DNA from: Candidatus Omnitrophota bacterium
Lineage (GTDB): Bacteria > Omnitrophota > Gorgyraeia > JAFGHF01
Direction: 5' to 3'
DNA: 64,000 nucleotides
Assembly (NCBI GenBank): GCA_020341815.1
Contig: CP070837.1
Location: 8,034-72,033 of the forward strand
Below are positions 11,517-26,383 of this stretch, one piece after another. The translations under genes were made by a program, and so were the position numbers. The notes beneath the pieces are model-generated. The model did not search any database and had not been told where the DNA came from. It worked only from the letters and a program-made list of their open reading frames with translations. Each line of letters begins with the position of its first letter. Within the stretch, counting starts at the first letter, position 1.

Positions 11517-11590
11517 TGGGGTGGCTAACGGGATTTGAACCCGCTCTAAGAGAACCACAATCTCTCGTGCTGCCAATACACCATAGCCAC
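11517..11590 (-). tRNA. tRNA-His(GUG) with encoded G-1 and CCA
   Basis: Cloverleaf read by eye: 8-bp acceptor with extra 5' G, anticodon loop TTGTGGT, T-loop GGTTCAAATCC, 3' CCA. Confidence 0.8.
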
Positions 11591-11605: not shown

Positions 11606-12310
11606 TTATTGTCCTATATTTGCTGCTTCCTCATATGTATCTACTTTTAATAAAGAATGTAAATTCAAAGCAGCCCAAACGGGGATATCCATCTTGATTT
11701 CTGATATCTCACCCTTTTCTCTTCTTCTGACCAGCTCTTCATAGTGTTTAATGCTTCTTCCAAAGAGCTTGTCTAAATATTTTATCAGGCTCCGGCGCTC
11801 TTGATCGGAAATAATAAACGGCAACTCTCCTTGAGGATTGTCCGACTCTGCCGGTTCAATAATCACCCAAACAGCCAGACTGCTGGTCTTTAGCGTATTA
11901 TTCCAGGCCTCACCCTGCTCCCGGGCATATTTGGAAAAAAGAGAAAGATACGCCTCTCTCGGCGGCCTATTTAAAGTCTTTATTAATTTTCCGGCAGCAG
12001 TTTCTATATTGGAAATATCCGCATATATCCCCCTTGCGGTTGCCCTGATTGCCTTATCTCTGCTCTCCAGCCAATCTTTCATAAACTCCTTCGCCTTTTG
12101 CAAACGGGGGACTTGATTGTTTAGATTGCCTAGAAGCTTTTCATATTCTACACCCTCAATACTGTAACGGGCAGCCAATTCCAGTCTATAGAGACAATTA
12201 ATCAAATCGTGCATAAACCGGTAATTCTCTGAATTTCTGGCTGCAAAGGCATTACTGGCAGACAATAAACTAAAAGCGAGGAATAATGAAATTAGCTTAT
12301 TTTTCATCAC
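11606..12310 (-). CDS. secreted hypothetical protein
   Basis: Signal peptide MMKNKLISLFLAFSLLSASNAFA; no recognisable domain. Confidence 0.45.
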   Translation of the reverse strand: MMKNKLISLFLAFSLLSASNAFAARNSENYRFMHDLINCLYRLELAARYSIEGVEYEKLLGNLNNQVPRLQKAKEFMKDWLESRDKAIRATARGIYADISNIETAAGKLIKTLNRPPREAYLSLFSKYAREQGEAWNNTLKTSSLAVWVIIEPAESDNPQGELPFIISDQERRSLIKYLDKLFGRSIKHYEELVRRREKGEISEIKMDIPVWAALNLHSLLKVDTYEEAANIGQ

Positions 12311-12334: not shown

Positions 12335-12571
12335 GATGGCGTCCCCGGCACGATGCCTTCAATTCTGATAGATTATATCTTCCGTGGATACGCATTGTTT
12401 GCTCCCCGTTATTATACCAGAAAACGGCTGTCTGTAAAGGGCTATTTTGGCCTGCTTCTTTCCCGGATATACGACTATGCCCGCAACAAATGTCCTGATA
12501 AACTCCTTCTTTCTTTCCGGCTCTCCATAGCCTAATATACCCTTGAAATCATCTAAATAAGACAACATCTT
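12335..12571. repeat. 237-bp direct repeat copy 1 (att core gatggcgtccccgg plus recombinase 3' fragment)
   Basis: About 96% identical to 15744-15980. First 14 nt identical to the 3' end of tRNA-Arg at 26032-26045. Confidence 0.9.
12359..12568 (-). pseudogene. C-terminal 69-codon remnant of a large serine recombinase
   Basis: Translation MLSYLDDFKGILGYGEPERKKEFIRTFVAGIVVYPGKKQAKIALYRQPFSG... matches the last 69 aa of the recombinase at 15768-17405 with about 5 substitutions. Confidence 0.85.
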
Positions 12572-12598
12572 ATAAATAAAGAAGTTACAACGGAAAAC

Positions 12599-15433
12599 CT
12601 ATTCCTCGTAAAATATAACTTTTAATCGTATTCGATTTAAATCAATACCGCCAACATTTTCAGGCACCTGCCGGGTCATCGGACTACTGGTGTTAGCTTG
12701 CTGTGGGATTATAGGACTGCTGGGAGCTAACCCTTTTTCTTTGTCTCTTCCAGCCAATTCCATAAGCTTAGGTAATAGCTCTTTGGCTTTGAATCGGCCT
12801 AAACTTCCCTTTTTTGCTTCCTTTTCGGTAAAAATAGTGGTTATATCCGGCTCAATATCGTCAATGATTAATACTGGAACCGGATCACCGCTGTGGCTCA
12901 TTGTTGCAGTGGCGGTTGTATGATCAGCAGTAATCACAACTACTACATCATCTAATGCTTTGCTCTTTAACAAAGGACCAAAAAAGTGTTCATCAATAAG
13001 CTGAGTCACATTTACTTTTCCCTGAGCATCTCCTTTATGTCCAAATGGATCGGGACCTTTCAAATGAACGTAGAGACCGTCACTTTTTTTCAGTTGATCT
13101 TCCACTATTTGTGCAGTTTCTTTATATTCCCGAGGCAAGTCAGCTACATATCTAGGCATTTGAACTAAATTCATTCCGGCAAGTAAACCTATACCTCTTT
13201 CAACCGGCATTTGCTGTACCATTGTCCAGTTCATTCCTCCGGTTTTCTCAGAAAGCGATTTAAGAAACACATCTTTTACGCTGGGGCCGCGAAGAAGGAT
13301 TAAATTTACTGGTACACGGCCTGTTGCTCTGCGTTTTTTATTTATTTCAGAATTATCCATAATTGTGAAGATCTTTTCTACGGCCTCATTTACCAATTTA
13401 CTCAATAGCTGTGTCTTCTCTGTAGGATCTAATCTTGGTTTTACTTTTTGCACTTCATACTTGAAGCTTCCTTCAGGCAAAGATTCAGATGCGTTCTTGC
13501 TGATTTTTTTATACCGGGGGCTTGCATTGGTAACGTCAACGTCCTCAAGAGTATTAAATTTAACTGTAGGAATCCTTATGATTATTACTCCTCGATATTC
13601 TTTAGTAGCGTAAACATAAGCTTTTGCGTTGGAATAAGAAGTTAATTCAAGATTATTATTGATTTCAGCAGCGATTTCTTCAGCCTCTTCTTGAGTTAAA
13701 TCTTTTTGTGCCCGAGGATCTTCGATTTTCAGTAATTCACCTTCCTTATGTCCTGTTCCAAAGTTTAGGCGAAATACAGCATCACCCTCTTGAACATCAG
13801 CGTCAATACCTAAAGCTTCAATTATTCCTCTTCCTGGATAGTCTATATCAGGATCGTAATTCAACATAGCCATCACTGAAGGGTCTGATTCTGGAGCAAA
13901 TCCAGGTTTGATTGGGTCCATCTGCCCCATAGCTCCCTGTTGCACTAACCGAGTTAGATTAGGTAAATTTGCATATTCCAAAGGAGTTTTGCCTCCGAAT
14001 TCTTTAATTCCATATTCTCCGTCACTTACCCCGTCTAAAACAAAATAAACAATCTTTTTCTTTTGGACAAAGCTTTGGTCTTTCACGGGTGAACTCAAAT
14101 TTTCTAATTCTTCTACGCTGTCATAATTAAACCTCTCCGGATTCACGGCGAAACGACTATACGCAAGTGTAATTTCCTCATGTGAAGCCAGACTGGAAAC
14201 TGGGCTCAGTTGCATACCTTCTAGTCCAATGCCTGTTTCATCTGTGATTATCTTCGCATACCATTGTTTACCAAAGGGATCGGCTGCTGTATTAGCAGGG
14301 CTTGATATTGTCTCTACCTTTTTGAATTTAGTACCAGCGAGTATCCCCCCTGAAAAATAATGCTTCTTGGCCATATCAAATTGATAGGGGTCGTATTCCT
14401 GCTGGTAAAAGGAATATTCGCCTTCCTTGTAGGATTTGACATAGGAATCGAAGAAGTCTCTTTTGTTCCAGGGGGTTCTGGAATGAAGCCCGCTGAGGCG
14501 GCCTTGATTGATGTGGTAGTCATACATGGTGCCCTTGCCCCAGTATTTCTGCTTGAAATATTCGGCTAAGATAAGAGAGTAGTATACCTCTCTGATGGGG
14601 GCATAACGCTTTGAATAGTTGACATCGTGCTCTATGACAGGGACGATTACTTCCTTCATTGCAGAGATGGCACAATTTTGAAGGAGCTTCTCCTGTGGGC
14701 TTTGAGTTGAGGTAAGCAGAAGGCCTGCATTGTGTTGTTCTAGGTATTCTGCCTCCAGGCAGACCTTAAGGCTGGCGCTGATAATGTTGACTCTGTCGGT
14801 TCCTCTTTCCTGTAAGATGGCCTCATTAGGCACAATCCAGAGACGGGATAAAGGAAGCGTCTTGAGGTTACTTATGCCGTTTTCTGTAAGGTTTTGCCTT
14901 AATTTGGCCCAGTATCTCTGGCCTATGGGGGTACGGGGATCGGTAAAGCGGGCAGCGTCTTTTTTAAGTTTGAGGTCGGTCTCCAGAAGGACCTTCCCCA
15001 TATCGGTAGCGGTAAGCCGGGGGCTGGCAATCTTATCCGGCTGGACAGGGTTAAGGTTGACCCAGAAGTCTTCCGAAGGTAAGACAAGGCCTAAGAAGAA
15101 GTAGTTGATTAAATCTCTGGCCTTTTGTCGTAATTGTAGGGACAGGGCTGGGCCCTGTCCATTATTGCCCTCATCCAGAACAAAGTCAAAGTAGTTTGAC
15201 TTAGACTGAGGGTTGATGATAAGGCTCCTTAGGACAGGTGGATAGTATTTATCGGTTCTTGCTTCTGAATTGGCAAGAGAGACGGATTTATCCGCAGAAT
15301 AGCTTGATGAGTCCTTGTTCCTTAGGCTGGCACAGAGTAATAAGACGCTAAAGGCTATAAAGAGTACTCCGATTATGCTACAGAGCCATATCCAGAATCT
15401 GTTTTCTTTTACGTTATGTCTTTTCTTTTTCAT
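12599..15433 (-). CDS. membrane-anchored fusion protein: novel roughly 460-aa N-terminal extracytoplasmic domain plus C-terminal ApgM-like cofactor-independent phosphoglycerate mutase / metalloenzyme (alkaline phosphatase superfamily) domain
   Basis: One TM (FWIWLCSIIGVLFIAFSVLLL). C-terminal half has IVYFVLDGVSDG...GGKTPLEYANLPNLTRL...DPSVMAMLNYDP...RLNFGTGHKEG...ITADHTTATATMSHSGDPVP, the ApgM/PF01676 pattern. Start set at M24 (ATG 15433) behind an AGGAG RBS. Confidence 0.65.
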   Translation of the reverse strand: MKKKRHNVKENRFWIWLCSIIGVLFIAFSVLLLCASLRNKDSSSYSADKSVSLANSEARTDKYYPPVLRSLIINPQSKSNYFDFVLDEGNNGQGPALSLQLRQKARDLINYFFLGLVLPSEDFWVNLNPVQPDKIASPRLTATDMGKVLLETDLKLKKDAARFTDPRTPIGQRYWAKLRQNLTENGISNLKTLPLSRLWIVPNEAILQERGTDRVNIISASLKVCLEAEYLEQHNAGLLLTSTQSPQEKLLQNCAISAMKEVIVPVIEHDVNYSKRYAPIREVYYSLILAEYFKQKYWGKGTMYDYHINQGRLSGLHSRTPWNKRDFFDSYVKSYKEGEYSFYQQEYDPYQFDMAKKHYFSGGILAGTKFKKVETISSPANTAADPFGKQWYAKIITDETGIGLEGMQLSPVSSLASHEEITLAYSRFAVNPERFNYDSVEELENLSSPVKDQSFVQKKKIVYFVLDGVSDGEYGIKEFGGKTPLEYANLPNLTRLVQQGAMGQMDPIKPGFAPESDPSVMAMLNYDPDIDYPGRGIIEALGIDADVQEGDAVFRLNFGTGHKEGELLKIEDPRAQKDLTQEEAEEIAAEINNNLELTSYSNAKAYVYATKEYRGVIIIRIPTVKFNTLEDVDVTNASPRYKKISKNASESLPEGSFKYEVQKVKPRLDPTEKTQLLSKLVNEAVEKIFTIMDNSEINKKRRATGRVPVNLILLRGPSVKDVFLKSLSEKTGGMNWTMVQQMPVERGIGLLAGMNLVQMPRYVADLPREYKETAQIVEDQLKKSDGLYVHLKGPDPFGHKGDAQGKVNVTQLIDEHFFGPLLKSKALDDVVVVITADHTTATATMSHSGDPVPVLIIDDIEPDITTIFTEKEAKKGSLGRFKAKELLPKLMELAGRDKEKGLAPSSPIIPQQANTSSPMTRQVPENVGGIDLNRIRLKVIFYEE

Positions 15434-15661
15434 CAAGTCTTCTCCTTTTAAGAATTTTCCATACGCGCTTAAATAAAAAAGCCGGTAAAGTCTATAGTTC
15501 ATCTATAAACTTCGCCAGCCCCTCTCTTAAGTTGCAAAATAATTCGCATACTCCCTATTCCTATTGAGTAATTATAATAGCACAATAAGAGACAAAAATA
15601 AAGATTAATTATTATTTAGCTAATACTTTACTCCAATGATATATGATGGTGGGGCGTAAAA

Positions 15662-15695
15662 TAAAAAGGCGGGACATTTTTGTCCCGCCTTTTTA
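15662..15695. terminator. bidirectional rho-independent terminator
   Basis: AAAAAGGCGGGACATTTTTGTCCCGCCTTTTT: 8-bp GC stem flanked by A-run and T-run. Confidence 0.7.
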
Positions 15696-15743
15696 GAATC
15701 CGTAACCTCTTATAAATATTTATGTTACAAGAGTATGCGAATT

Positions 15744-15980
15744 GATGGCGTCCCCGGCACGATGCCTTCAATTCTGATAGATTATATCTTCCGTGGATAC
15801 GCATTGTTTACTCCCCGCTATTATACCAGAAAACGGCTGTCTGTAAAGGGCTATTTTGGCCTGCCTCTTCTCTGGATATACGACTATGCCCGCAACAAAT
15901 GTCCTGACAAACTCCTTCTTCCTCTCCGGCTCTCCATAGCCTAATATACCCTTGAAATCATCTAAATAAGACAACATCTT
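15744..15980. repeat. 237-bp direct repeat copy 2 (att core plus intact recombinase 3' end)
   Basis: See copy 1. Preceded by cgaatt, matching the cgaatc flank of the tRNA-Arg 3' end. Confidence 0.9.
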
Positions 15981-17405
15981 CCCTACCGCCTTATCTGCAT
16001 GGCCGTTATGGACCTTTGTTGTAAGACGGCCTTTCTCCTGATATAACTGCTGCCTTTGAAACACATATTTATTGATGATATTTACAGCGCTATCAAGCTC
16101 TATGCCCTTCTCAATGGCCTTTTTCCAGTTTTCTATCTTTAAGGATACCTCTTTTATCTCCTGATCTAACTCGCAGAGCCTCGTATCTGACCTATTTTCC
16201 GCAATTTTGACTATTTTAAGCAGTTCTTCTTTTAATTCCTTCCGCCAGGCAGAATTGTCTATCTTATTCTGTATGTAGCTTATAACAAACTCCTCAAGCT
16301 TATCTGCATCTATATCCCATCTAATACAGGCATTATTGCCATACATATTATAGCCGCCGCATCGATACCTTCTGGCTACTCTGTCTTTTCTTTTATAGCG
16401 GCTGCCCTGGAAATTAGAGCCGCACTTGCCGCATTTCATTATTCCGGTCAAAAGATAATTACTTCCCGGCCTTGTCCCGCAAGACAAGAACCTTCCGCCT
16501 ACAAAGGCCTGTCTTGTCCTGGCCTGAATCAATTCCCAAAGTTCCATGGAAATTATCGGCTGATGAGAGTTTTCTACGACAACCCACTTATCTTTAGGGT
16601 TATATTTGTGCTTGCCGTTTCGTTTATGTATATTTTCCCGGTTATACACTAAGGTTCCAATATAAACATCATTATGCAATATCCGCCAAAGGGATGATTT
16701 TGTCCACTTTTTGCCTCTTGGAGGCGCATAAGGACTTTGGTTAAGATATTCTACAATAGAGCGCACGGATAACCCCTGCTTGGCGAACATTACAAATATA
16801 GTCTTAATAACTTTAGCCTGCTGTTTATTTACGACAAGCTTTATTTTCTGGCCCTTTATGCCCTTTTCTTTGCCTTCCGGCAGAACCTCGCCTATTTTTC
16901 CGCCTTCAACAAGAGCTCTATTATAGCCGTAAGGGGGCCTCCCGCCCATCCAAAAGCCCTGTTTCGCATTATATATCTTACCTCTTAGCGTCTGCCGCCT
17001 GATATTCTTTAGATATTCTGAGGCCTCTGCGCTTTTCACAAAGTTGGTTATTGAAGTTCCTATACTGTCTTCTTTAAAACCTTCCGAGACAAAAACGACT
17101 TTCTTATCTGCTCTTTCAACTTCTACTTCCCAATAGACAGCTTCTTTGGGATTAGTGAACCTGCCCCATCTGGAGATATCATATACAAGTACATATTGAA
17201 AATCATCCTTTAATTTACAGCATTCTATCATTTTGCGAAACTGCGGGCGGCCTTCCACATTTTCGCCGCAGGCCTCTTCCGCAAAAAACTCTATCACTTT
17301 AATAGAATGCTGCTTTGCAAACAGCAATATCTTCTCTTTCTGCTGTTCTAAAGATGTCTCCTGTAAGTCAGTCGATTTTCTCAAGTAGGCAATGGCTTGC
17401 TTCAT
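15768..17405 (-). CDS. large serine recombinase (resolvase N-domain, recombinase domain, zinc ribbon, coiled coil)
   Basis: YLRKSTDLQ catalytic Ser motif, DISRWGR, GGRPPYGY, CGKCGSNF...RYRCGG zinc ribbon; 545 aa. Confidence 0.85.
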   Translation of the reverse strand: MKQAIAYLRKSTDLQETSLEQQKEKILLFAKQHSIKVIEFFAEEACGENVEGRPQFRKMIECCKLKDDFQYVLVYDISRWGRFTNPKEAVYWEVEVERADKKVVFVSEGFKEDSIGTSITNFVKSAEASEYLKNIRRQTLRGKIYNAKQGFWMGGRPPYGYNRALVEGGKIGEVLPEGKEKGIKGQKIKLVVNKQQAKVIKTIFVMFAKQGLSVRSIVEYLNQSPYAPPRGKKWTKSSLWRILHNDVYIGTLVYNRENIHKRNGKHKYNPKDKWVVVENSHQPIISMELWELIQARTRQAFVGGRFLSCGTRPGSNYLLTGIMKCGKCGSNFQGSRYKRKDRVARRYRCGGYNMYGNNACIRWDIDADKLEEFVISYIQNKIDNSAWRKELKEELLKIVKIAENRSDTRLCELDQEIKEVSLKIENWKKAIEKGIELDSAVNIINKYVFQRQQLYQEKGRLTTKVHNGHADKAVGKMLSYLDDFKGILGYGEPERKKEFVRTFVAGIVVYPEKRQAKIALYRQPFSGIIAGSKQCVSTEDIIYQN

Positions 17406-17545
17406 TAAGCTGTAACTTTCTCCCTTTCAATGACTACTCTTTTATCCTTCTGCTCTTCAAAATACTTGCTGAACATACACTCAATAATAAACTGGTTGAT
17501 TCTTTTTCCTGCTTCCGGCGGCTTCTTCTTTTCCTTGCTCTCCAT
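17405..17545 (-). CDS. 46-aa ORF overlapping the recombinase start (TAATG), possible recombination directionality / regulatory factor
   Basis: MESKEKKKPPEAGKRINQFIIECMFSKYFEEQKDKRVVIEREKVTA, AGGAG RBS upstream; below the ORF-track cutoff. Confidence 0.3.
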   Translation of the reverse strand: MESKEKKKPPEAGKRINQFIIECMFSKYFEEQKDKRVVIEREKVTA

Positions 17546-17562
17546 ACCAGGCTCTCCTTCCT

Positions 17563-17769
17563 TTACCTAACCAGATCCTTGCAACTAACGCCAAGGGCTT
17601 TGGCAAGCTCAAAAAGAGTTGTCAAATACATATTGACCCTGCCGTGTTCCACCCGGCTTATATATCCCCGGCTCAACTTGGCCTTTTTAGCCAGCTGCGC
17701 CTGTGTCAGCTTCTTCTCTGAGCGGTAATAGCGTATATTGTCCCCTATCTTCCTTCTCAGCTCTGACAT
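17563..17769 (-). CDS. XRE-family HTH transcriptional regulator
   Basis: LTQAQLAKKAKLSRGYISRVEHG HTH motif; start trimmed to M18. Confidence 0.75.
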   Translation of the reverse strand: MSELRRKIGDNIRYYRSEKKLTQAQLAKKAKLSRGYISRVEHGRVNMYLTTLFELAKALGVSCKDLVR

Positions 17770-17826
17770 AATACCTTTCCTCCTTTCATCAGTAATTACA
17801 TATGTAATGTTTGAGCACAAAAAAAT

Positions 17827-18021
17827 TTACCAGGTAATTCCCAGCGCCTTTATCTCCTTTATAGTCCTCTCCTGTTTTGGCACTGCCATCCCTAATTCCC
17901 ACCGCGCAATTGTAGTAACAGTTACAACTAATTTTCGCGCAAGTTCTTGTTGCGTCAAATCGCGTTCCTCTCTGTATCTTTTTATTGCCCGGCTAAATTT
18001 TTGCTTATCAATGGTCGTCAT
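17827..18021 (-). CDS. XRE-family HTH transcriptional regulator
   Basis: LTQQELARKLVVTVTTIARWELG HTH motif; 64 aa. Confidence 0.75.
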   Translation of the reverse strand: MTTIDKQKFSRAIKRYREERDLTQQELARKLVVTVTTIARWELGMAVPKQERTIKEIKALGITW

Positions 18022-18109
18022 CTTCTTCCTTTAATTCTTAAAGATAGCTTATCATATGTAATTACCCTTGTCAAGTGGTTTTTTTAAAGAATTTCTTTGG
18101 GAGAAAGCT

Positions 18110-18811
18110 TTATTTACGAGGACAAATAGAGCATGGAGATCTATTTGAAATACACGTATAAACGTTTATGCCATCAACTCTATGAAAATCTGCATCAATA
18201 ACAATAAAGTCATTTATGCCAGCTTCTTGCGCAATAGCAATATTAAGAGCATCTGCTGGTAAGATATTATACAGTTCTACAATATTGCACATCTTTTCGG
18301 TGACAGTCTCTGTTGTCTTCGTTTGCAGATGATCTGCTTCTAAAACGGCAATTGGAATAGCCATAATCCTCTCATAATAATATTTTAGTAAATGGTAATA
18401 CTTAGCAATTAATTCGTGATGATCTTTTAATAATTCGGATAATGGATTTTTTCTTCCTTTATCTTTATATTCTTGAATATGCCTATCATAAGGGGTAGTA
18501 AAGAAATCTACAGATTCTACTTTATTTTTCAAAATATAAAAAAAGAACTCATTCAAAACATAATTATCTGTAAATAAACAAATTTCTTCAGATTTCGCTT
18601 TTGTTTCTAAAAGAGTCAAAAAATCACTGCAAATAATATTTATTCTGGAAAAAATTTTCTCTGGAACAGGAAAAAAAGAATTGATGAGAAAAGAAGTATC
18701 TATAAAAAAGAAATCTGGAAAATTAAATCCAGATTTTTTAGTATTATTAAATTTATATATCGTCGCTGGCATAGAAGTTTTTTTTGTTATCTTTTTCAAA
18801 ATATTTCTCAT
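18110..18811 (-). CDS. long PIN-like nuclease domain protein (about 220 aa), third gene of a coupled operon
   Basis: FFFIDTSFLIN (first Asp) ... TDNYVLNEF ... DALNIAIAQEAGINDFIVIDADF (distal Asp pair), with a roughly 90-aa insertion between. Alternative start M14 at 18772. Confidence 0.5.
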   Translation of the reverse strand: MRNILKKITKKTSMPATIYKFNNTKKSGFNFPDFFFIDTSFLINSFFPVPEKIFSRINIICSDFLTLLETKAKSEEICLFTDNYVLNEFFFYILKNKVESVDFFTTPYDRHIQEYKDKGRKNPLSELLKDHHELIAKYYHLLKYYYERIMAIPIAVLEADHLQTKTTETVTEKMCNIVELYNILPADALNIAIAQEAGINDFIVIDADFHRVDGINVYTCISNRSPCSICPRK

Positions 18812-19100
18812 TATCTAAGGTAACTTGATCGGGGAAGGTAATATTCGAAATCTCACCTTTCTTTGAAGCCAATATTTTAGCTTTTGCCAAAGCTAATTTA
18901 TAGAATGATTTTAATTTATTCTTTTTTTCTTCTTTTAATTCGCTAAAAATTAAATTATCTGTTACTTTCTTTAAATAGTGCTCCAGGATTCTTTTCTTAT
19001 TAGTAAACCGCATTTCCTCTTGGCTAATCAAGACAACATCTTTATCATCCTCGATATGCCAAATTTCTAGGCCGATATCTTTCTTGAGTATTTTATGCAT
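18753..19100 (-). CDS. 115-aa hypothetical protein, middle gene of the operon
   Basis: Start at the ATG embedded in AATGCATAA (overlaps the stop of the upstream gene); the track's longer N-terminus would overlap the upstream ORF by 178 nt and is rejected. Confidence 0.45.
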   Translation of the reverse strand: MHKILKKDIGLEIWHIEDDKDVVLISQEEMRFTNKKRILEHYLKKVTDNLIFSELKEEKKNKLKSFYKLALAKAKILASKKGEISNITFPDQVTLDNEKYFEKDNKKNFYASDDI

Positions 19101-19701
19101 TTTTATTTTCTTTTTGTTTGATAAAAGCTGCCGAAAAATTCTTTGATTTTTTAATGGTATCCTTAAGATATCCAAAGCTATAACTATTAATGTGCTCCGA
19201 AAGAACTTGAAGAAAGATATCATCTGCCTTACAACGATGACATTTCTGAATATCCAAAATAATAGAATCAACTTCTCTATGCTCTGGAAAAGAAATTCTC
19301 ATACCATTCAAAATTACTTTTCCAAAGCCACTTCTTTTTTCTTCAAAAACCACTGGCAGAGCAGGATCAGTTTCAAAATCTTTCCTTGAATAATGAAATG
19401 TCATTCTTGAAAAAATAGTTATTTTTTCTGTAAAGTTTTTCTCGAAAAAGTCTGAAGTTTTTTTGAAATTCTCTATATCTTTTTTTTCGAAGCTAGGATA
19501 ATCAGGAATAGTAACGGTAAGTTGATAAGCAGTAGTAGAATTTGGTTTTTGTTCAGGCAATTCAATCAGACTAAAAAGTTCTTTCTGTACATGGATAAAG
19601 TTAGAGTATTCTTTATAAAGTCTTTTTTCTATAGCCAATTCAGTAACTAACTTGGCATAATAGAAATGCCTATTTTTTATTAAATTTATAAACTCTTGCA
19701 T
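19093..19701 (-). CDS. 202-aa hypothetical protein, first gene of the operon
   Basis: No recognisable motif; 146-bp AT-rich promoter region upstream. Confidence 0.45.
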   Translation of the reverse strand: MQEFINLIKNRHFYYAKLVTELAIEKRLYKEYSNFIHVQKELFSLIELPEQKPNSTTAYQLTVTIPDYPSFEKKDIENFKKTSDFFEKNFTEKITIFSRMTFHYSRKDFETDPALPVVFEEKRSGFGKVILNGMRISFPEHREVDSIILDIQKCHRCKADDIFLQVLSEHINSYSFGYLKDTIKKSKNFSAAFIKQKENKNA

Positions 19702-19846
19702 AGTTTGTGATATCTAATTGTAATATTTATTAACAAAAGTTATTTTAGCACAAATTTCGATAAAAGTCAATTATATTTATAATTGCCCAAATTGTCCAGA
19801 AACATAACTTATTTCCTCTTAAGCAGTTGCAACAATTCACCAATTC

Positions 19847-20638
19847 TCAAAAACCAACTTTGTATTTTTTCAGAAATAAATCTAATTCTTGTTTCTTTCC
19901 TAGTTCAAATAAATCATTATATACAGATAGGAATGTATGCATGTATTCAATTGTTAAAATCATATTTGTTATTATATTGCAATATGATGGGTCAGAAGAA
20001 AAATATGTATATTCTTCAGTACGCTTCACTTCTTGGATGATTCCAAGCATTGAGGGGTGTGAAATTAAGCAGCACATACGATATACAAGATTATATTCAT
20101 TTGACATACCAACTACTTCGGCCATTCTTTCAACGGATTTCCCCGACCAAGTAGAAAGACCATTTTTAACTTTAAAATTTACTTTATATTCTTTAACTTT
20201 AGCCAAAATTTCGGGTTCTTTTGATAGAATTGATTTCTGTAACTTTTTGCTCTCAACTTGTTTATTTGTTTTCCAATATTTCAATTGCTTTCTCATCAGT
20301 AGCCATTTGTATTCTTCAAATCTTTGAGCAAGCTCATTAGGATTTTTATTCAAAATTATATATTTTGTAGTAATCAAATTTTCTAATAGTGATCTCATAA
20401 GTATTAGGGCGCTCATACCATGACCTTCTTGGCAGAGCAAATCAATAGATTTATAATGTCTAATTGATGTATTAAATAGATATAGAAAGGTGTTCTTATA
20501 TTTTGGTATTCTGCTTGGTCGAAAGTTATTTGATGATTGATTAAAGACGATAAGTAATGTGTCTATTAAATGATATAAATTATCGGCGCATTCAAATAGT
20601 TCTTTATTTTTTTTAAGATTTTCATGTTTAAAAGCCAT
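19847..20638 (-). CDS. hypothetical protein with HEPN-like Rx6H motif (RMCCLISHPS), candidate abortive-infection-type RNase
   Basis: 263 aa; the R-x6-H-x-S motif lies in a predicted helical C-terminal region. Confidence 0.35.
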   Translation of the reverse strand: MAFKHENLKKNKELFECADNLYHLIDTLLIVFNQSSNNFRPSRIPKYKNTFLYLFNTSIRHYKSIDLLCQEGHGMSALILMRSLLENLITTKYIILNKNPNELAQRFEEYKWLLMRKQLKYWKTNKQVESKKLQKSILSKEPEILAKVKEYKVNFKVKNGLSTWSGKSVERMAEVVGMSNEYNLVYRMCCLISHPSMLGIIQEVKRTEEYTYFSSDPSYCNIITNMILTIEYMHTFLSVYNDLFELGKKQELDLFLKKYKVGF

Positions 20639-20818
20639 ATTTTTATATTCACTTCATATAATGCTTGAGATAATCTGTCTTTTTCGCATAGCTAAAAAAG
20701 TTAGATTGAGCGATTTGATAAAGGTTTAATTTATAAATATTTCACATAAAATCAGGTGACAATACCTATTTAGTAATTAAGTATTGTCCCTCGATTTGTG
20801 TCATTTTCGCTCTCTTGT

Positions 20819-21157
20819 TTAAGGTAAAGCTACTGGTACGCTAAACTTAATTCGGCTTACTGAGGAATTCTCTTTGCGGGATTCACCTTGACTGCCAAGT
20901 CCGACTGATCCAACAAAAACACCAATGCCACCTTTTGTGCCCTGTCGTTCCACTGCAGTTATTGCTACATCAAATTCAACTATAGTTACAGTTTTATGGC
21001 CGCTCATTTTCATCAGGCCTTGTTTCACAATATCTTTTGTATCCCCCCAAACACCTGGATTAATGTCGGCACCGGATGTGGATTCAGATTCCTTAGCATT
21101 TTTAATGCCTGTAATTAACTCTTCTAAGGTTTTTGACACAAAGTCACTTAAATTCAT
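20819..21157 (-). CDS. small protein resembling the Trypco2 (trypsin-co-occurring domain 2) fold
   Basis: N-terminal amphipathic helix (LEELITGIKNA) followed by Gly-rich beta hairpins VEFDVAITAVERQGTKGGIGVFVGSVGLGSQGES...IKFSVPV. Only gene in the window with a perfect AGGAGG SD at -7. Confidence 0.35.
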   Translation of the reverse strand: MNLSDFVSKTLEELITGIKNAKESESTSGADINPGVWGDTKDIVKQGLMKMSGHKTVTIVEFDVAITAVERQGTKGGIGVFVGSVGLGSQGESRKENSSVSRIKFSVPVALP

Positions 21158-21289
21158 ATGGATCCTCCTATTGAAATCTGGAAATCTGAAATCTAAAAAT
21201 CCGTATGCTTTAGATTACGGGAACATAATATTTATTTATTAGATTTTAAAGCTAATTAAGTGTTGATCCCTAGAATTTTCCGATTGGTT

Positions 21290-22381
21290 TTATTTTCCAG
21301 ATTTTGTTCGGTTATCTTGTTTGCACAACATTTGACAATTTTCTGCAACAGTCTTTCCACCTTCATGCCATGGCTTTATATGATCAGCTTCCATTCCTTC
21401 TATCTCAAAGCGTTTCTTGCATTTTACGCATTTACCTTTTTGCCTTTCATATGCTTCTCTCTTTTGTTTATCTGTGAATGCTCTAATATTCAAAAATTTC
21501 TCATTTCGGGTTAAAATATATGGATAAATTCCGGATTTCTTCGTTACTTCGTCATCTAGCATTAATTCTTTGATTTCAGTTTCCAATTTATTAGAGTTCA
21601 GTCTCTTCTTTTTGAACTCGTTATGCAGCCCGCCCCATTGCACACCACTCATTTCTCGGCGATAATTTATAAAAGTCTTTCGCACCCACTCAATCACATC
21701 TTGAAAGTATTGCCATAATTCTTCAGCATTCTGACTATGCTGATGTTTGGCCATATAATCTTCTATCTTGCCATTGTTAATCCACGAAAGTGCAGTTTCT
21801 AAATACTCTTGTCGTATTGGCGATCCACTTACTAATTGTCCCCCATCATTTGCTAGAAGGTATGCTGCACAATTTGATTTGCTAAATTTCAATTTAGCGT
21901 CGCTCAACCATGGCCCAGTATAAACTGCATTGCGTATTTCTTGATCAGTCAATTTTACACCGGCAATGTTGATAATCCTAAACCAGTCTAACCGCTCTTT
22001 GTCTGTGCCTTCGCAGAAGTAAATCATTAGTTCATAATCCAAAATTTTATCCTGCTCCTCTTTGGTTAGATTATGAAAAAAGCAGTTATTCAGTGAAAAA
22101 TCGTTATAAACATATTGTCCTATACTAATAGTGCGCTGTTGGCCGTCCAGCATTTCGTAGCCGCCATCTTCTCTGATCATCCAATACATCACATTCAGCG
22201 GAAAGCTGTTTTTGATAGTTTCTATCACGGCATTACGTTGCTTTTCCTTGTATACAAACTCACGCTGATATTTTGGACGAATATTCAATTTGCCGTCATA
22301 AGCCGTCACGCCTTCTTCAGCACTATCTTTATAATCGGCTATTACCTTACGAATTGGAATTTTATGTAGATCGATTTTCAT
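21290..22381 (-). CDS. DUF262 (ParB/Srx-like, DGQQR) domain protein with C-terminal HNH endonuclease, GmrSD/SspE-like
   Basis: MLDGQQRTISI motif; C-terminal CVKCKK...EADHIKPWHEGGKTVAENCQMLCKQDN HNH motif. Confidence 0.75.
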   Translation of the reverse strand: MKIDLHKIPIRKVIADYKDSAEEGVTAYDGKLNIRPKYQREFVYKEKQRNAVIETIKNSFPLNVMYWMIREDGGYEMLDGQQRTISIGQYVYNDFSLNNCFFHNLTKEEQDKILDYELMIYFCEGTDKERLDWFRIINIAGVKLTDQEIRNAVYTGPWLSDAKLKFSKSNCAAYLLANDGGQLVSGSPIRQEYLETALSWINNGKIEDYMAKHQHSQNAEELWQYFQDVIEWVRKTFINYRREMSGVQWGGLHNEFKKKRLNSNKLETEIKELMLDDEVTKKSGIYPYILTRNEKFLNIRAFTDKQKREAYERQKGKCVKCKKRFEIEGMEADHIKPWHEGGKTVAENCQMLCKQDNRTKSGK

Positions 22382-22382
22382 A

Positions 22383-23435
22383 TTATTTTTTCACTTTCTT
22401 GTTTTTAATTAAAATACGAGCATATATTTCTTGACCATTTATCGTAAATCTCTTTCCATAATTCGGATTATCTTTGACATACCTATCAATACCAATAATT
22501 TCAAACTGCTCGGGGTTATATTTATCAACAAATGTAATTGGAACACCCATTACACCTTTATAATCCATTGGGATATCAATGTATCTATTTATATTAATAG
22601 CATTGTAGCTATCATATTTAGGATAATCCTCTGGGCTATATTTTTTATATAAAGTTAATTCTTCATGACGTTTTGCAGTATCCAAATTTGTAAACCACAG
22701 AATACGACCCATACTTAAATATTTCACACCGTTTTCAATCTTCTTCCTTGATTCTGTTGGTATGTCATAATCCATGGGTACCTGGAACCACTTCGTGCCA
22801 CCGTTATCATAACCAAGCCACAATTTATTTTCTTTGATATAGCCGAAAATTTCTTTATAAGAAATAGCGTTCTGATCACCAAGAATCAAAAACTTCTTGT
22901 TATATTCCATTAGCTGTGCAACATATTCCCGAAACAGAGAAAAAGGCGGATTGGTTACAACTATGTCGGCTTGCTTGAGTAATTCTATACACTCATCGCT
23001 GCGGAAATCGCCATCACCTTCAAGGGGAGATGAAGTATTAACATCATGTCTTAGCAACCACTCTACATCTGTAATATCAACAGCGCCGTCGGCATTAACA
23101 TCTGAAATCTCCCTTATTTCAATTTTAAATGGCTCTTTGCCTTTCGGCTTTAACCCTTCCATTTCAAACAACAACAGCTGACCGCCCACAATTGGCGACT
23201 TAATATAGCTTGTGGTAATAAGCTTCTTTAGTTTTAGTGGTTTAAAATTAGCAGCGAAATATTTAAAAAAATTACTCTCAAAGGGATCATCGCAATTACA
23301 GTAAACAACCTTGCCACGAAATTGTTCTTTGTAGTGTCTTAGCTCTTTTTCAATATCAACGAGCTGGGTATAAAACTCATCTTTTTTTGCTTTGCTTGCC
23401 TTATGTAAGTTTTTATTTAAAGATTTAGTTCCCAT
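22383..23435 (-). CDS. N6-adenine DNA methyltransferase (FYT motif X-like ... NPPF motif IV) with embedded EF-hand/dockerin-like Ca-binding loop
   Basis: DEFYTQLV near the N-terminus, IVVTNPPFSLF catalytic motif, DVNADGAVDITD 12-residue DxNxDGxxDxxD loop; stop overlaps the start of the DUF262-HNH gene. Confidence 0.6.
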   Translation of the reverse strand: MGTKSLNKNLHKASKAKKDEFYTQLVDIEKELRHYKEQFRGKVVYCNCDDPFESNFFKYFAANFKPLKLKKLITTSYIKSPIVGGQLLLFEMEGLKPKGKEPFKIEIREISDVNADGAVDITDVEWLLRHDVNTSSPLEGDGDFRSDECIELLKQADIVVTNPPFSLFREYVAQLMEYNKKFLILGDQNAISYKEIFGYIKENKLWLGYDNGGTKWFQVPMDYDIPTESRKKIENGVKYLSMGRILWFTNLDTAKRHEELTLYKKYSPEDYPKYDSYNAININRYIDIPMDYKGVMGVPITFVDKYNPEQFEIIGIDRYVKDNPNYGKRFTINGQEIYARILIKNKKVKK

Positions 23436-23659
23436 ATTTTTATTAGGATTTGGTCCTAATTACCTAATGTTACTTTCTTCCTACTAATTCATCCAAGCTA
23501 ACCCCAAAAGCATCGGCAATCTTAACCATGGTTTGAATTGTGGGTTGCTTTGCGATACTTTGTTCGATTATGTATTTTACTTGCCTTTGTCAAGAAATTA
23601 GTATTGCGTCCCCTGATCTGCATGATTCTGCGATTCTGTAGAGGAATATCCCGTTTATC

Positions 23660-24973
23660 TTATTGCTCAATCTTACAACCCTCCTTTGACACTCTTAACC
23701 ATCCATATTTCTTTGTAAAGATATCGAGTACATCATTATTTGTAATTTCTCCCTGTTCTTTCAGATAGAGCAGATTTAATAGATCAATTGTCCTCATAAT
23801 TAACACCTTCTTTTCAACTGCTAACTTTACTTGCTCTGAATTTACTTCGCGCAATTTGTCTGCAATACTATTTGCTGATTTTATAAATGAATTCACAATT
23901 AATATAGTTGGAAATTTAGACGATTTCCCTCTGCGACCTCTATGTGAGTCTGCTTGATAAACATTAGGACTTTTAATATTTTCGTTTACTCCCTTTATTT
24001 CCAAAAGAGCTATCTCTTTATTATCTTTGTCAAGTATTGCTCTGTCTTCTATGTATTCGTCTTTTTTAGTATCTATGTTAAAGCTAAACCCTTCTTTCAA
24101 TACATCTACCACACTATCAACTAATGGATTATCACTATAACAAAGGCATCTTTTATATTTTTTATACACCTCTTTTCCTGCAAGTAGTGCCTCTATCTTA
24201 TTCTGTAATGCTACTTCTTTTTTCAAGATAGCTTCTTCTTCTTGAAACTTATAGTCGTCTACCCAAGATGGTATTTCTTGAACTAATTTCTTTGAAGTAG
24301 CCACTAAAGATGAAACGAGTTCCTTAAAAAAATGATCTATTTCGTCTATTGATGGTATCCGACACGGGATAATATAATGGCTGTCAAACAAAATGAAGCC
24401 CGCTAGAGTACGATAGCCTGCATCACAAATCTTTTTTACATACGGTTCAAAGAATGAATTATAGGAAAATTTTACCTTTGCTATGCCATAGTCTTTCAAG
24501 AATTGCAGAAATTCCCCTTTATAAGTCTTTGTAATTCCACAATCCCCACCTAAAGGATACCTATAGAAACCATCATAATTTAGAAGCAGTTTGCATAAGC
24601 CAGTCTGTTTCAGATTTAAGTCATCCTGACCTCTTATATAATCAACAAATTCTGAATGGATGAGGAAGCAAATAAATCCTCCTCTCTCGCGTAATTGTAA
24701 AGTTTGATTTCTTCTTTTTACTAATTCATCTCTCCGATATCGCAAATATTTTTGTGCATAGAGGCCATCTGTTGATTCAACACTTTCAAATGTAGACTGG
24801 AATAAAACTACGCCATTATAATCTTGAAACCTTTTAGCTGTTTCGAAAGGTTCAAAATCTATTTCAAAGTTTTTGGTTTTGATGGTTGACTGCGGAATAC
24901 TTAAGTCGAAACGCTCAATACCATATACAAGAATACGTGGTAAGGTAGAACCTTGAATTTGTTTAGCATCCAT
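23660..24973 (-). CDS. hypothetical protein with C-terminal PD-(D/E)xK nuclease-like core, candidate restriction endonuclease
   Basis: ...EDRAILDKDNKEIALLEIKG (D ... ExK spacing typical of the restriction-endonuclease fold); N-terminal 300 aa unassigned. Confidence 0.4.
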   Translation of the reverse strand: MDAKQIQGSTLPRILVYGIERFDLSIPQSTIKTKNFEIDFEPFETAKRFQDYNGVVLFQSTFESVESTDGLYAQKYLRYRRDELVKRRNQTLQLRERGGFICFLIHSEFVDYIRGQDDLNLKQTGLCKLLLNYDGFYRYPLGGDCGITKTYKGEFLQFLKDYGIAKVKFSYNSFFEPYVKKICDAGYRTLAGFILFDSHYIIPCRIPSIDEIDHFFKELVSSLVATSKKLVQEIPSWVDDYKFQEEEAILKKEVALQNKIEALLAGKEVYKKYKRCLCYSDNPLVDSVVDVLKEGFSFNIDTKKDEYIEDRAILDKDNKEIALLEIKGVNENIKSPNVYQADSHRGRRGKSSKFPTILIVNSFIKSANSIADKLREVNSEQVKLAVEKKVLIMRTIDLLNLLYLKEQGEITNNDVLDIFTKKYGWLRVSKEGCKIEQ

Positions 24974-25094
24974 TTATTTCACCTCATCTCTATGAAAACT
25001 ACAGGAAATTCTTTGGCCAGCAAAATCACATTGACTTTTATTTTACCCCTTTTTGTTGACTATAGCAAGGTAAAAGTACTTGGACAATGGAGAG

Positions 25095-25334
25095 TCATTT
25101 GGCCTTTTTAGACCAATGAAATAGGGCTATTTTGATGGAAATTGGGATTGGTTTGCCCTTTCGGGGCCTGCAATGACGTCTGAGGCGTAAAATCCAGCCC
25201 TTTGGAAACCAGATTTCCCTGCCATCAAACTCGATTAGGATGGCTTTGGGGGTTTCTTTGATGAGAAGGGCGTTTATCCAGACATATTCCGGGGGATTTA
25301 AGGCATATTTGAGCCAAAATTTGAGGCTAAACAT
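25095..25334 (-). CDS. small hypothetical protein
   Basis: 79 aa, overlaps the upstream wHTH gene by 8 nt. Confidence 0.35.
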   Translation of the reverse strand: MFSLKFWLKYALNPPEYVWINALLIKETPKAILIEFDGREIWFPKGWILRLRRHCRPRKGKPIPISIKIALFHWSKKAK

Positions 25335-25815
25335 AGGTTTTTCTTGCTTTTCTCAGGTTTCTAAGGCCTTCTTTTAGCCAATCTGGGGCAATATAAGGCT
25401 TTTCGCAAAGGGGTTTTGGCTGTTCAGTAAATTCGGATCTCCTTTTTCTGATCTTCTTAGTGGTAATTTCTTTATGGGCAGTGGCGCGGCGCTGCTTGAG
25501 CTCTATTCTGTCAACCGGAAGATCCTGGAGCTCTACCCATATCTTTGGCTTTTTGTTCTTGTGGCCGGAAACCATCCCCTTTTCAGTAGCAATCAGGCCC
25601 ATATCTTTGAGCTCTTGGCGTGCTTTGTATATTGTCGCATTGGCCAGGCCGGTGGCTTCTTTTAATGCTTTTGCTCCATAGCAGCTTCTGCCCTCTGCCC
25701 CACCTGCTAAGACATAAAGAATGTAGAGCTTGGCGGCTGAGGCGGACATTTCCTTTAAGAATCCTAATTCTTTAAGGTCCCTGTCTATCCAGCCAAATGG
25801 GTAAAGTGTTCTCAT
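25327..25815 (-). CDS. winged-helix DNA-binding protein (phage/plasmid replication-organiser or regulator type)
   Basis: LYILYVLAGGAEG...ATIYKARQELKDMGLI wHTH followed by a basic tail. Confidence 0.45.
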   Translation of the reverse strand: MRTLYPFGWIDRDLKELGFLKEMSASAAKLYILYVLAGGAEGRSCYGAKALKEATGLANATIYKARQELKDMGLIATEKGMVSGHKNKKPKIWVELQDLPVDRIELKQRRATAHKEITTKKIRKRRSEFTEQPKPLCEKPYIAPDWLKEGLRNLRKARKTYV

Positions 25816-25865
25816 AGTTTAAATATTCTATTTCAATATCTATTTAATACTTATATAGAGAGTTC

Positions 25866-25915
25866 AAATTTTGAACTATGCCCTGCTTAAAGCTGAGTTC
25901 AAAAATTGAACTATG
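25866..25915. promoter_or_regulatory. two copies of the palindromic operator GTTCAAAnnTTTGAAC-TATGC
   Basis: agttcaaattttgaactatgc and agttcaaaaattgaactatgc 24 bp apart, upstream of the wHTH gene and next to the attL side. Confidence 0.4.
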
Positions 25916-26033
25916 CTTTAAAATAAAAAAAGGGAAGCTACCCTGCACCGTATGGTACAGAACAACTTCCCTTAATTTTGGTAACCTTTTATAACTGTTT
26001 AAGTTATAAAAGTGTCCGAATCGATGGCGTCCC

Positions 26034-26308: not shown

Positions 26309-26383
26309 TCGGGACGGGCAGATTCGAACTGCCGACCTTCTGCTCCCAAAGCAGACGCGCTAGCCAAACTGCGCTACGTCCCG
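26309..26383 (-). tRNA. tRNA-Pro(UGG), CCA not encoded
   Basis: Acceptor CGGGACG/CGTCCCG, anticodon loop TTTGGGA, T-loop TTCGAAT; 4 nt upstream of tRNA-Arg. Confidence 0.8.

Follow-up and report, generated by a model that had tools for sequence, protein, structure and literature searches.

Archaeal cofactor-independent phosphoglycerate mutases of the ApgM type (TIGR00306; PF10143 plus PF01676; structures 2ZKT, 3IDD and 3KD8) belong to a two-domain fold family with a catalytic serine and six metal ligands, and are leaderless proteins of ~410-440 aa. Here we describe a 944-aa exported protein in which a domain of this kind is fused behind a single membrane anchor and a conserved N-terminal module (the N-module). 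The fusion protein is encoded at positions 12599-15433, minus strand, of a 64,000-nt stretch of DNA from a Candidatus Omnitrophota bacterium (assembly GCA_020341815.1, contig CP070837.1, positions 8,034 to 72,033), referred to below as the window. To judge from its sequence, it is one payload variant of an Omnitrophota N-module family and not a one-off fusion. The picture that we favour, with only slightly better than even confidence, is that of an anchored, exported family protein whose diverged ApgM payload acts on a non-glycerate phosphoester outside the cytoplasm.

The closest described relatives of the payload differ from it in several respects. It shares with ApgM the motifs LDGxxD, xSDxx, DxxGH, DH and HSGDPVP; however, residues of the motifs DRRxGR, TNTDPAY, RDAGD and HDGD are altered, and all phosphoglycerate mutase (PGM) equivalog models fail. 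Phosphoryl-type transfer to non-glycerate substrates by an ApgM fold is supported by the phosphonoformyl transferase PhpG (NF038358) and by a proposed homoserine kinase (TIGR02535), but scores here are far below the cutoffs of both models, and those enzymes are cytoplasmic and encoded in biosynthetic clusters. Exported enzymes of the alkaline-phosphatase superfamily (PhoA-type) use a metal-activated Ser/Thr nucleophile and a phospho-enzyme intermediate outside the cytoplasm. These enzymes lie in another branch of the superfamily, in which the fusion protein has no sequence-level membership, and the likeness may be taken as a "works like" model for it.

The architecture and the genomic setting also have known counterparts. 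Polymorphic toxins and effectors (e.g., LXG, Rhs and CdiA) combine a conserved N-terminal trafficking domain with a variable C-terminal domain. The present family resembles them in its conserved N-module, variable downstream domains and many paralogues per genome, but differs in having a conserved C-terminal motif or domain after the payload, in the lack of adjacent immunity or conserved secretion genes, and in payloads that are mostly not classical toxins. Tandem accretion of site-specific elements at the 3' end of a tRNA gene, with a recombinase-less remnant flanked by attachment (att) sites, is likewise a known arrangement (the cis-mobilisable-element type). The locus described here matches it in three direct att cores, homologous arms, one intact recombinase and a tRNA 3' end regenerated by the element; it differs in that the enzyme is a large serine recombinase instead of the usual tyrosine integrase, in that the remnant keeps the last 70 recombinase codons, and in that mobility would have to be deduced from the arrangement.

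The phylum Omnitrophota has been described as host-dependent or predatory (bioRxiv 10.1101/2023.11.21.568195 and 10.64898/2026.06.07.730766), and these preprints report long or giant exported multi-enzyme proteins ("Archaeovorins") with NUDIX, PPDK_N, HATPase_c and HEAT_2 domains that are predicted to be mostly extracellular. The fusion protein resembles them in coming from the same phylum, in having a signal peptide or transmembrane anchor and in carrying a divergent copy of a normally cytoplasmic enzyme domain that is predicted to lie outside the cell; it differs in being short (944 aa), in carrying a single payload and in being borne by a mobile element. Neither the N-module nor the GGID motif described below is defined in the accessible text of either preprint, and ApgM is not among the domains named there. 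The frame of N-module and GGID motif is described in none of the libraries and papers searched, whereas the ApgM fold, the long exported proteins of Omnitrophota and accretion at tRNA genes are of kinds already known.

Gene structure and domain architecture

On the minus strand, an open reading frame (ORF) runs without interruption at 12599-15502, as seen in both the ORF list and the translation, and the coding sequence of the fusion protein occupies 12599-15433 (944 aa, stop codon at 12599-12601). The ATG at 15433 is a credible start and the one to use, because a GGAG (15442-15445) lies 8 nt upstream of it and the closest homologues share the same start point, followed by a K/R-rich stretch and then a W-x-W hydrophobic segment. 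On these grounds the ORF proposed in an earlier note on this DNA, which had been made from the sequence alone, is real, and every motif quoted there (LDGVSD, GGKTPLEYANLPN, SDPSVMAMLNYDP, TADHTT and HSGDPVP) is present in the translation. The identical protein in NCBI, JSV30_00160, is called as 800 aa from an internal Met (residue 145), a call in which the anchor is lost, and with it the first third of the N-module (15001-15433, minus strand).

Five parts can be distinguished, all given here in minus-strand coordinates. A single hydrophobic signal-anchor, FWIWLCSIIGVLFIAFSVLLLCA (residues 13-37; 15323-15397), preceded by MKKKRHNVKENR, is followed by the conserved N-module (residues ~58-366; 14336-15262), which was delimited by an alignment of family members (A1) and an AlphaFold2 (AF2) model. 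Next comes a linker (residues 367-455; 14069-14335) with low predicted local distance difference test (pLDDT) values and the tripeptide Ser-Ser-Pro (SSP) in SSPA (377) and SSPV (447), and then the ApgM-type metalloenzyme domain (residues 456-899; 12737-14068), which is recognised by PF10143, PF01676 and TIGR00306 and has Ser516 as its predicted nucleophile. The protein ends in a tail (residues 900-944; 12602-12736) with SSPI (905), SSPM (916) and the family motif VGGIDLNRIRLKVIFYEE, whose GGIDL (928) is encoded at 12638-12652. In the full-length AF2 model, residues 361-455 and 901-934 have pLDDT below 50. The order of parts given in the earlier note, namely an anchor, an unannotated N-terminal part and a C-terminal ApgM domain, was borne out; the size of the second part was not, as the N-module spans ~310 aa and the 460-aa domain proposed there had counted in the ~90-residue low-confidence linker.

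The N-module defines a large family in Omnitrophota

The N-terminal half of the fusion protein has no Pfam or NCBIfam match at E <= 1, and a search of PDB sequences with the N-module profile gave no match at E <= 10. The AF2 model of the N-module (pLDDT 84; predicted template modelling score, pTM, 0.84) consists of three beta-hairpins packed on long helices, for which Foldseek returned no PDB match (best E = 0.12, TM 0.10) and none in BFVD. With Pfam, NCBIfam, PDB and Foldseek all empty, the view that this half belongs to no recognisable family holds. The further suggestion that it is a novel orphan domain does not, since the N-module heads a family of at least 8,179 representative clusters.

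When residues 1-470 were used in a word-indexed search, only 14 relatives were recovered, each of them either from Omnitrophota or from a metagenome without a label; they have ~310 residues in common and then diverge completely, several of them ending in the same ...VGGIDLxxI... tail. In alignment A1, the N-module is 24-56% identical to 11 independent members over its whole length, with 39 invariant columns and the motifs FWVNL, TDxGKxLLExDLxLKK, WIVP, LKV, LRQ[IV]YxSLILA and YFSGG. A local hidden Markov model (HMM) of the module scores the fusion protein at 445 bits, a value to which the inclusion of the fusion protein itself in that profile contributes. When the A1 profile was scored against 1.84 billion representative proteins, 8,179 matches were obtained at E <= 1e-3 and 6,890 at E <= 1e-30. 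Among the 150 matches listed, the match always starts within residues ~2-69, and protein lengths range from 410 to 7,391 aa. In species-representative genomes, searching with one peptide pattern brought up at least 596 loci. For the 80 of these that were retained, the label is Omnitrophota in nearly every case, and a genome has several paralogues. Pfam reported no match on the N-module of 55 other members, and neither the N-module nor the GGID motif was found described anywhere in full-text literature searches.

Members of the family follow a common plan: a signal peptide or anchor, the N-module with YFSGG at its end, a variable region that may be as short as about 100 or longer than 7,000 residues, SSP linkers, the motif GGID[LFM] and usually a C-terminal domain. 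Ser-Ser-Pro is enriched 6.5-fold after the N-module (182 observed vs 28 expected). It was also observed that SSP frequently lies no more than 30 residues upstream of the GGID motif, and that the end motif of the N-module, YFSGG(I/V), is related to GGID and reads YFSGGIDF in a few members. The placement of SSP, YFSGG and GGID at module boundaries suggests that they may be processing or modification sites. In nearly all complete members GGID[LFM] stands ~106-140 residues before the end of the protein. The fusion protein lacks this C-terminal domain of ~106-140 residues and ends 17 residues after GGIDL, as do two relatives, P0002 and P0004 (locus L005), with which its tail can be aligned; on this sequence comparison the three form a short-tailed subfamily with a predicted transmembrane anchor. 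In all other respects the family plan is present in the fusion protein, with an anchor and then the ~310-aa N-module, and with SSP linkers and GGID[LFM] after the variable region.

The Pfam domains found in the variable region of 45 other members are sporadic. They include Peptidase_M3, PPDK_N with PEP-utilizers, NUDIX, aldose 1-epimerase, protein kinase, APH, cytidine deaminase, methyltransferases, Peptidase_M23, ankyrin, HEAT, HATPase_c and DUF218, while a Pfam scan of ten further members gave no credible match. An ApgM-like region was found in 0 of 236 other family members, which makes the ApgM payload unique within the family as sampled by these sequences.

Relatives of the fusion gene sit among housekeeping genes in ordinary chromosomal locations. 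A scan of 80 family loci for a conserved secretion, immunity, chaperone or processing neighbour revealed scattered housekeeping genes only. The earlier note had proposed looking for the same fusion in other genomes and for an association with serine-recombinase elements, and neither was seen: the ApgM relatives are standalone proteins, as described below, and a recombinase match within 6 kb, a weak one at that, turned up at just 1 of the 80 loci. Some family contigs (L078 = CAYHWL010000109.1, as well as L009, L017, L019 and L066) are binned as a Methanosarcinales archaeon, uncultured Planctomycetales or Deltaproteobacteria. Such contigs are probably mis-binned Omnitrophota, and the binning of one with Methanosarcinales could reflect physical association with a host.

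The payload retains the ApgM catalytic residues and has lost other conserved positions

Assignment of the payload to the ApgM fold is strongly supported. Pfam matches PF10143 (E = 9e-34, 117 bits, cutoff 21.5) and PF01676 (E = 1e-28, 101 bits, cutoff 24.3) are far above threshold, and the best structural counterparts are the archaeal cofactor-independent phosphoglycerate mutases (iPGMs) 2zkt, 3idd and 3kd8, with E-values from 3e-51 (2zkt) to 5e-41. The apgM model TIGR00306 is just passed, at 325.4 bits vs a cutoff of 320. The three iPGM equivalog models all fail (NF003104, 289 vs 489 bits; NF003242, 202 vs 426; NF003160, 200 vs 468), as do the PhpG model NF038358 (293 bits, cutoff 545) and TIGR02535 (197 bits, cutoff 446). 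Across the domain AF2 pLDDT is above 90.

To locate the differences, the domain was compared with its 45 closest homologues, which are 36-44% identical to it, and a position was counted as conserved when at least 85% of the 45 agreed. On this definition 82 of 113 conserved positions are kept and 31 are changed. The positions kept include D467 (LDG), S516 (in ESD, which is GSD in 2zkt and 3idd), D795 and H799 (PDPFGH), D837 and H838 (ADH) and H847 (HSGDPVP), as well as FRxNF, R574 and R715. We take S516 and the six metal ligands to be the equivalents of Asp12/Ser62/Asp403/His407/Asp444/His445/His462 in Bacillus iPGM numbering. All seven are found in the alignments with 2zkt, 3idd and the 45 homologues, so the catalytic serine and metal ligands, whose loss would have undermined the assignment, are present.

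Several of the changed positions lie in motifs. DRRxGR, found in all but one of 22 homologues inspected, reads DPRAQK here (R573P, G576Q and R577K), with two of the three arginines of the motif gone; TNTDPAY reads TNASPRY (D638S); RDAGD reads RGPSV (D716G and G718S); and HDGD reads HKGD (D800K). Of R573, G576, R577, D638, D716, G718 and D800, most show no variation among the 45 homologues (100% conserved), and none is conserved in fewer than 96% of them. Further changes are G525N, A553V and P722V. We infer from this pattern that substrate recognition has changed while phospho-serine chemistry has been retained.

The architecture is unusual as well. When the record of the fusion protein itself is set aside, the 119 best matches to residues 456-944 all stand alone, with lengths of 416-458 aa, and the 22 whose N-termini were inspected begin at the LDG motif and have no leader. 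The named relatives come from Brocadiales, Dictyoglomus, Nitrosopumilaceae and Omnitrophota, and in NCBI the nearest homologues are named only "alkaline phosphatase family protein". Among the 5.8 billion protein clusters of the database searched, the fusion protein itself is a singleton. Because the domain models and the catalytic residues pass and the equivalog, conserved-motif and architecture tests fail, the domain should, on the available sequence comparisons, be called ApgM-like and not a phosphoglycerate mutase.

Anchor and predicted topology

Residues 13-37 form the only stretch of the whole protein in which a Kyte-Doolittle 19-mer exceeds 1.6. The flank on the N-terminal side of this segment (MKKKRHNVKENR) contains 6 K/R and 1 D/E, and under the positive-inside rule the N-terminus would therefore be cytoplasmic and the remainder outside. 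The ApgM enzyme part is thus predicted to lie outside the cytoplasm, in agreement with the single transmembrane helix and extracytoplasmic enzyme proposed in the earlier note, again as a prediction from one hydrophobic segment and its positive N-flank. An N-terminal hydrophobic segment is present in 137 of the 144 family proteins with complete N-termini, and many members have classic signal peptides ending in ...GFAQV. The subgroup of the fusion protein, P0002 and P0004 has instead a long W-x-W anchor, which does not look like a cleavable signal peptide. Surface, periplasmic and host-delivered locations of the protein are indistinguishable on these features.

Codon composition of the fusion gene

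The G+C content at third codon positions (GC3) of the fusion gene changes at codon 357 (window position about 14363), at the YFSGG end of the N-module, from ~0.55 before to ~0.30 after (log-likelihood gain 27.7). In 53 other family genes GC3 is also higher in the N-module, by 0.08 on average and by 0.20 at most, and the change point is frequently found at the same module boundary. The step of about 0.25 in the fusion gene is the largest seen. A GC3 step is thus a trait of the family, as would fit a conserved head joined to a fast-evolving or exchanged body, and in the fusion gene it hints that the payload may have been replaced at the module boundary. Steps that are smaller but run the same way occur commonly in the family, and the step was therefore dropped as proof of a recent payload capture.

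Functional and evolutionary scenarios

The anchored, exported phosphoester enzyme that we favour can be set out as a mechanism. Sec would insert the protein, and the uncleaved N-terminal anchor would keep it in the inner membrane with its bulk outside. The N-module would be the common scaffold or targeting part of the family, and the ApgM domain, held on a flexible tether, would bind two divalent metals. A phosphoryl group would then pass from a phosphoester onto Ser516, giving a phospho-serine intermediate, and from there to water or to a non-glycerate acceptor, so that the enzyme would behave as a phosphatase or a phosphotransferase. Its substrates would be compounds bearing phosphate groups, found in the periplasm or on the surface of a host-dependent bacterium, and envelope processing of phosphorylated compounds would be a reasonable role in an organism of this type with reduced metabolism. 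The earlier note had spoken of a repurposed activity on a surface substrate, which is plausible in the light of the sequence features given above.

Several points weigh against this interpretation. The role of the N-module as an export or display scaffold is read from its position and from the signal peptides of the family, and the changed residues are assumed to line the substrate pocket from their motif position and their invariance in relatives. The full-length AF2 model has a pTM of 0.53 and places no confidence in the interdomain arrangement. With TIGR00306 narrowly passed and no catalytic residue missing, the protein could be a genuine mutase of 2- and 3-phosphoglycerate (2PG and 3PG). 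It is also a singleton in a metagenome-assembled genome (MAG), in a decaying element, and could be nearing loss. Lastly, the mostly cytoplasm-type payloads of the family would fit delivery to a host cell at least as well as action in the periplasm.

A wider reading concerns the family as a whole, and we put it forward tentatively. The N-module and GGID(L/F) may constitute a system for export or display that has not been described before and is nearly confined to Omnitrophota, in which hundreds of differing and often normally cytoplasmic enzyme payloads are brought to the envelope or into host cells. The ApgM variant, with its place on the remnant of a mobile element and a sharp break in codon composition right at the end of the N-module, would then be an instance in which payload swapping and horizontal spread in that system have been caught.

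Closely tied to the nature of these payloads is the scenario of an effector, in which the N-module and the GGID tail direct secretion or delivery into host or prey and the payload acts on host metabolites. The enzymes carried by the family belong mainly to cytoplasmic metabolism (PPDK_N, NUDIX, kinases, deaminase, methyltransferase and M3 peptidase), its proteins have conserved ends and variable middles, and it occurs almost only in Omnitrophota, for which the preprints cited above describe host dependence or predation and long exported proteins with similar domains. We nevertheless regard this scenario as unlikely for the fusion protein: no conserved immunity, chaperone or secretion neighbour is seen around the 80 family loci, no delivery machinery is linked, and the uncleaved-looking anchor, together with the missing C-terminal domain of ~110-135 residues, points to retention in the membrane of the producer.

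The fusion protein might also be a true phosphoglycerate mutase (2PG<->3PG) tethered to the membrane, which would supply or complement glycolysis or convert host phosphoglycerate at the envelope. A TIGR00306 score of 325.4 bits vs 320, best PDB matches to archaeal iPGMs and conservation of the nucleophile, all metal ligands, FRxNF, R574 and R715 speak for this. However, the score falls some 200 bits or more short of the cutoff of each of the three iPGM equivalog models; R573, R577, D638 and D800, which are invariant in the 45 closest relatives, have been lost; the substrate of such an enzyme is cytoplasmic while the predicted topology is extracytoplasmic; and even the nearest homologues are named only "alkaline phosphatase family protein". 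Taken together these observations make a true mutase quite unlikely.

That the payload is catalytically dead or the gene decaying, carried along without function by a degenerate element or kept only for binding or as a structural part, appears very unlikely. Such decay would be in keeping with a protein that is a singleton among 5.8 billion protein clusters and has 31 of 113 conserved positions changed, with a very low GC3 after codon 357 and with an element that has lost its recombinase. The 944 codons are, however, intact and preceded by a ribosome-binding site, all seven catalytic residues are kept at no more than 44% identity to any relative, AF2 pLDDT of the domain is above 90, and the family-typical tail is intact downstream.

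A tandem array of serine-recombinase elements at a tRNA gene

The fusion gene lies in the second of two elements arrayed in tandem at a tRNA gene. The 14-nt core CCGGGGACGCCATC occurs three times in direct orientation, on the minus strand. The attL core (26023-26036) is formed by the tRNA 3' end plus TC and is followed by the left arm of element A; the attP-like junction core (15744-15757) has the recombinase end on its left and the left arm of element B on its right; and the attR core (12335-12348) has the end of a recombinase remnant on its left and unrelated chromosomal sequence on its right. Element A (15744-26022, minus strand, about 10.3 kb) contains defence cargo, two helix-turn-helix (HTH) genes, a small ORF and the recombinase, and element B (12335-15743, minus strand, 3,409 nt) contains a left arm, a terminator, the fusion gene, the recombinase remnant and the right core.

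The integration target is the 3' end of a tRNA gene (26025-26304, minus strand) whose anticodon loop is interrupted by a 203-nt insertion; ARAGORN called this gene when introns were allowed. This tRNA ends in CCGGGGACGCCA, followed by TC and then by GATTCGGACACTTTTATAACTTAAACAGTTATAAAAGGTTACC, which is homologous to 15743-15700, the sequence after the recombinase end. The latter is the left (P'-type) arm of element B, AATTCGCATACTCTTGTAACATAAATATTTATAAGAGGTTACGG (15700-15743, minus strand), which is homologous to 25980-26022 and to a junction in two related contigs (L085 and L086). Since the same core and a homologous left arm stand at the tRNA 3' end ~10 kb upstream, the two elements form a tandem array, and the apparent hairpin after the recombinase stop codon can be recognised by its sequence as a mimic of the tRNA 3' end. 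Between the left arm of element B and the fusion gene lies a terminator-like perfect 15-nt inverted repeat (15662-15695) flanked by A and T runs.

The intact large serine recombinase of element A (15768-17405, minus strand, 545 aa) has the domains Resolvase, Recombinase and Zn_ribbon_recom (PF00239, PF07508 and PF13408) and is preceded by a 46-aa ORF and the two HTH genes. Its last 213 nt plus 24 nt downstream make up copy A (15744-15980) of a 237-nt direct repeat. Copy B (12335-12571, minus strand) is 96% identical, with 9 differences, and comprises the tRNA-mimic end and the remnant of a second serine-recombinase gene, namely the last 70 codons (12359-12571), which are 94% identical to the intact protein at the amino acid level. 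The fusion gene had been described in the earlier note as the sole cargo of a second element; it is indeed the only intact gene of the 3.4-kb att-bounded segment, but that segment has no recombinase of its own. Because element B keeps only the last 70 recombinase codons, we infer that it could move only in trans, by means of the recombinase of its neighbour.

Two other interpretations of this region were considered and dropped. The 237-nt repeat was at one stage read as a Campbell-type insertion or an assembly artefact, until the core and left arm were found at the tRNA. The fusion gene was likewise placed outside the recombinase element, as conservation stops 21-24 nt past the recombinase stop codon, until the att series at the tRNA was recognised. 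It is extremely improbable that the fusion or its repeat-flanked context is an artefact of MAG assembly: the source is a MAG, contigs with related recombinases commonly break near the recombinase 3' end and a 237-nt repeat could mislead an assembler, but the ApgM domain has family-typical sequence on both sides (the N-module and SSP linker upstream, the SSP/GGIDL tail downstream), so that a chimera would need two precise in-frame joins, the repeat copies differ at 9 positions, and the three att sites make up a coherent series of attL, attP-like and attR.

Relatives of the recombinase, 69-86% identical, were found on twelve metagenome contigs, and a scan of viral contigs for the recombinase gave no match. 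Conservation among the relatives ends at ...GGGGWCRCCA, 21-24 nt past the stop codon. In three of them (L085, L087 and L088) defence genes lie upstream of the small-ORF/recombinase core, encoding a type I restriction R subunit, a reverse transcriptase, DUF6933, a SIR2-like protein and a restriction endonuclease, and the HTH gene before this core is weakly similar. The cargo region of element A (18-25 kb) has a GC content of 0.28-0.35 and encodes a PIN-like protein, DUF5677, a GmrSD_N+HNH nuclease, an EcoRI-type adenine methylase and several unknown ORFs. In L085 (7630-7720) and L086 (3969-4060), an insertion of ~95 nt near the stop codon alters the last residues of the recombinase and displaces the tRNA-mimic end, which is followed by left-arm-like sequence, a hairpin, and XRE-HTH and HipA-like genes. 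This arrangement looks like another tandem or attP-like junction.

Further features of the array were observed. Two copies of TTGTAAC-N7-TTTATAAGA-N-GTT (12564-12590 and 15704-15730, minus strand), 22 of 27 positions identical, flank the fusion gene exactly, and no further copies are present in the window. The second is part of the left arm of element B, while the first, TTGTAACTTCTTTATTTATAAGATGTT, stands at the deletion junction with the recombinase remnant, where its right part corresponds to recombinase codons 476-478. This 27-nt repeat thus coincides with the deletion junction, and it may mark a site of secondary recombination or serve as an operator. A 19-mer recurs a third time at 19024-19042, where the coding context is unrelated, and this copy was put down to chance. 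Inside the duplicated recombinase 3' end there is also a strong sigma-70-like promoter match (12411-12438 and 15820-15847, minus strand; TTTACA, 16-nt spacer, TG-extended TATAAT, 11/12) that points downstream of the element end.

The tRNA at 26025-26304 was missed by ARAGORN at default settings and adjoins a tRNA-Pro (26309-26383). With introns allowed it is called as Ser(gct); its variable arm is short, which leaves its identity and the exact insertion point uncertain. Rfam found no group I intron in the insertion at E <= 0.1, and a sub-threshold YrlA-like match (29.7 bits vs a gathering score of 69) overlaps both tRNAs. The first chromosomal gene past element B (11606-12310, minus strand) encodes 234 aa with a classic signal peptide, MKNKLISLFLAFSLLSASNAFA, and has no Pfam match; it is followed by a tRNA-His at 11517-11590.

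Implications for Omnitrophota

Omnitrophota are widespread, mostly uncultured, host-dependent nanobacteria, for which a role of surface and secreted proteins in attachment and predation has been proposed. In this phylum a single unannotated N-terminal module heads at least 8,000 clusters of predicted exported proteins with exchangeable payloads. The profile of the module, its boundary motifs and a predicted fold without known relative together provide a handle for cataloguing the secretome of the phylum. At the level of the genome, the tandem serine-recombinase elements at an insertion-bearing tRNA gene offer a clean example of accretion, including a one-gene remnant that would be mobilisable in trans. 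Within the family, work could most easily start from the ApgM member, as the chemistry of its payload is well understood and the assays are simple. If it is indeed active outside the cytoplasm and on a new substrate, it would add to the functions covered by the iPGM branch within the alkaline-phosphatase superfamily.

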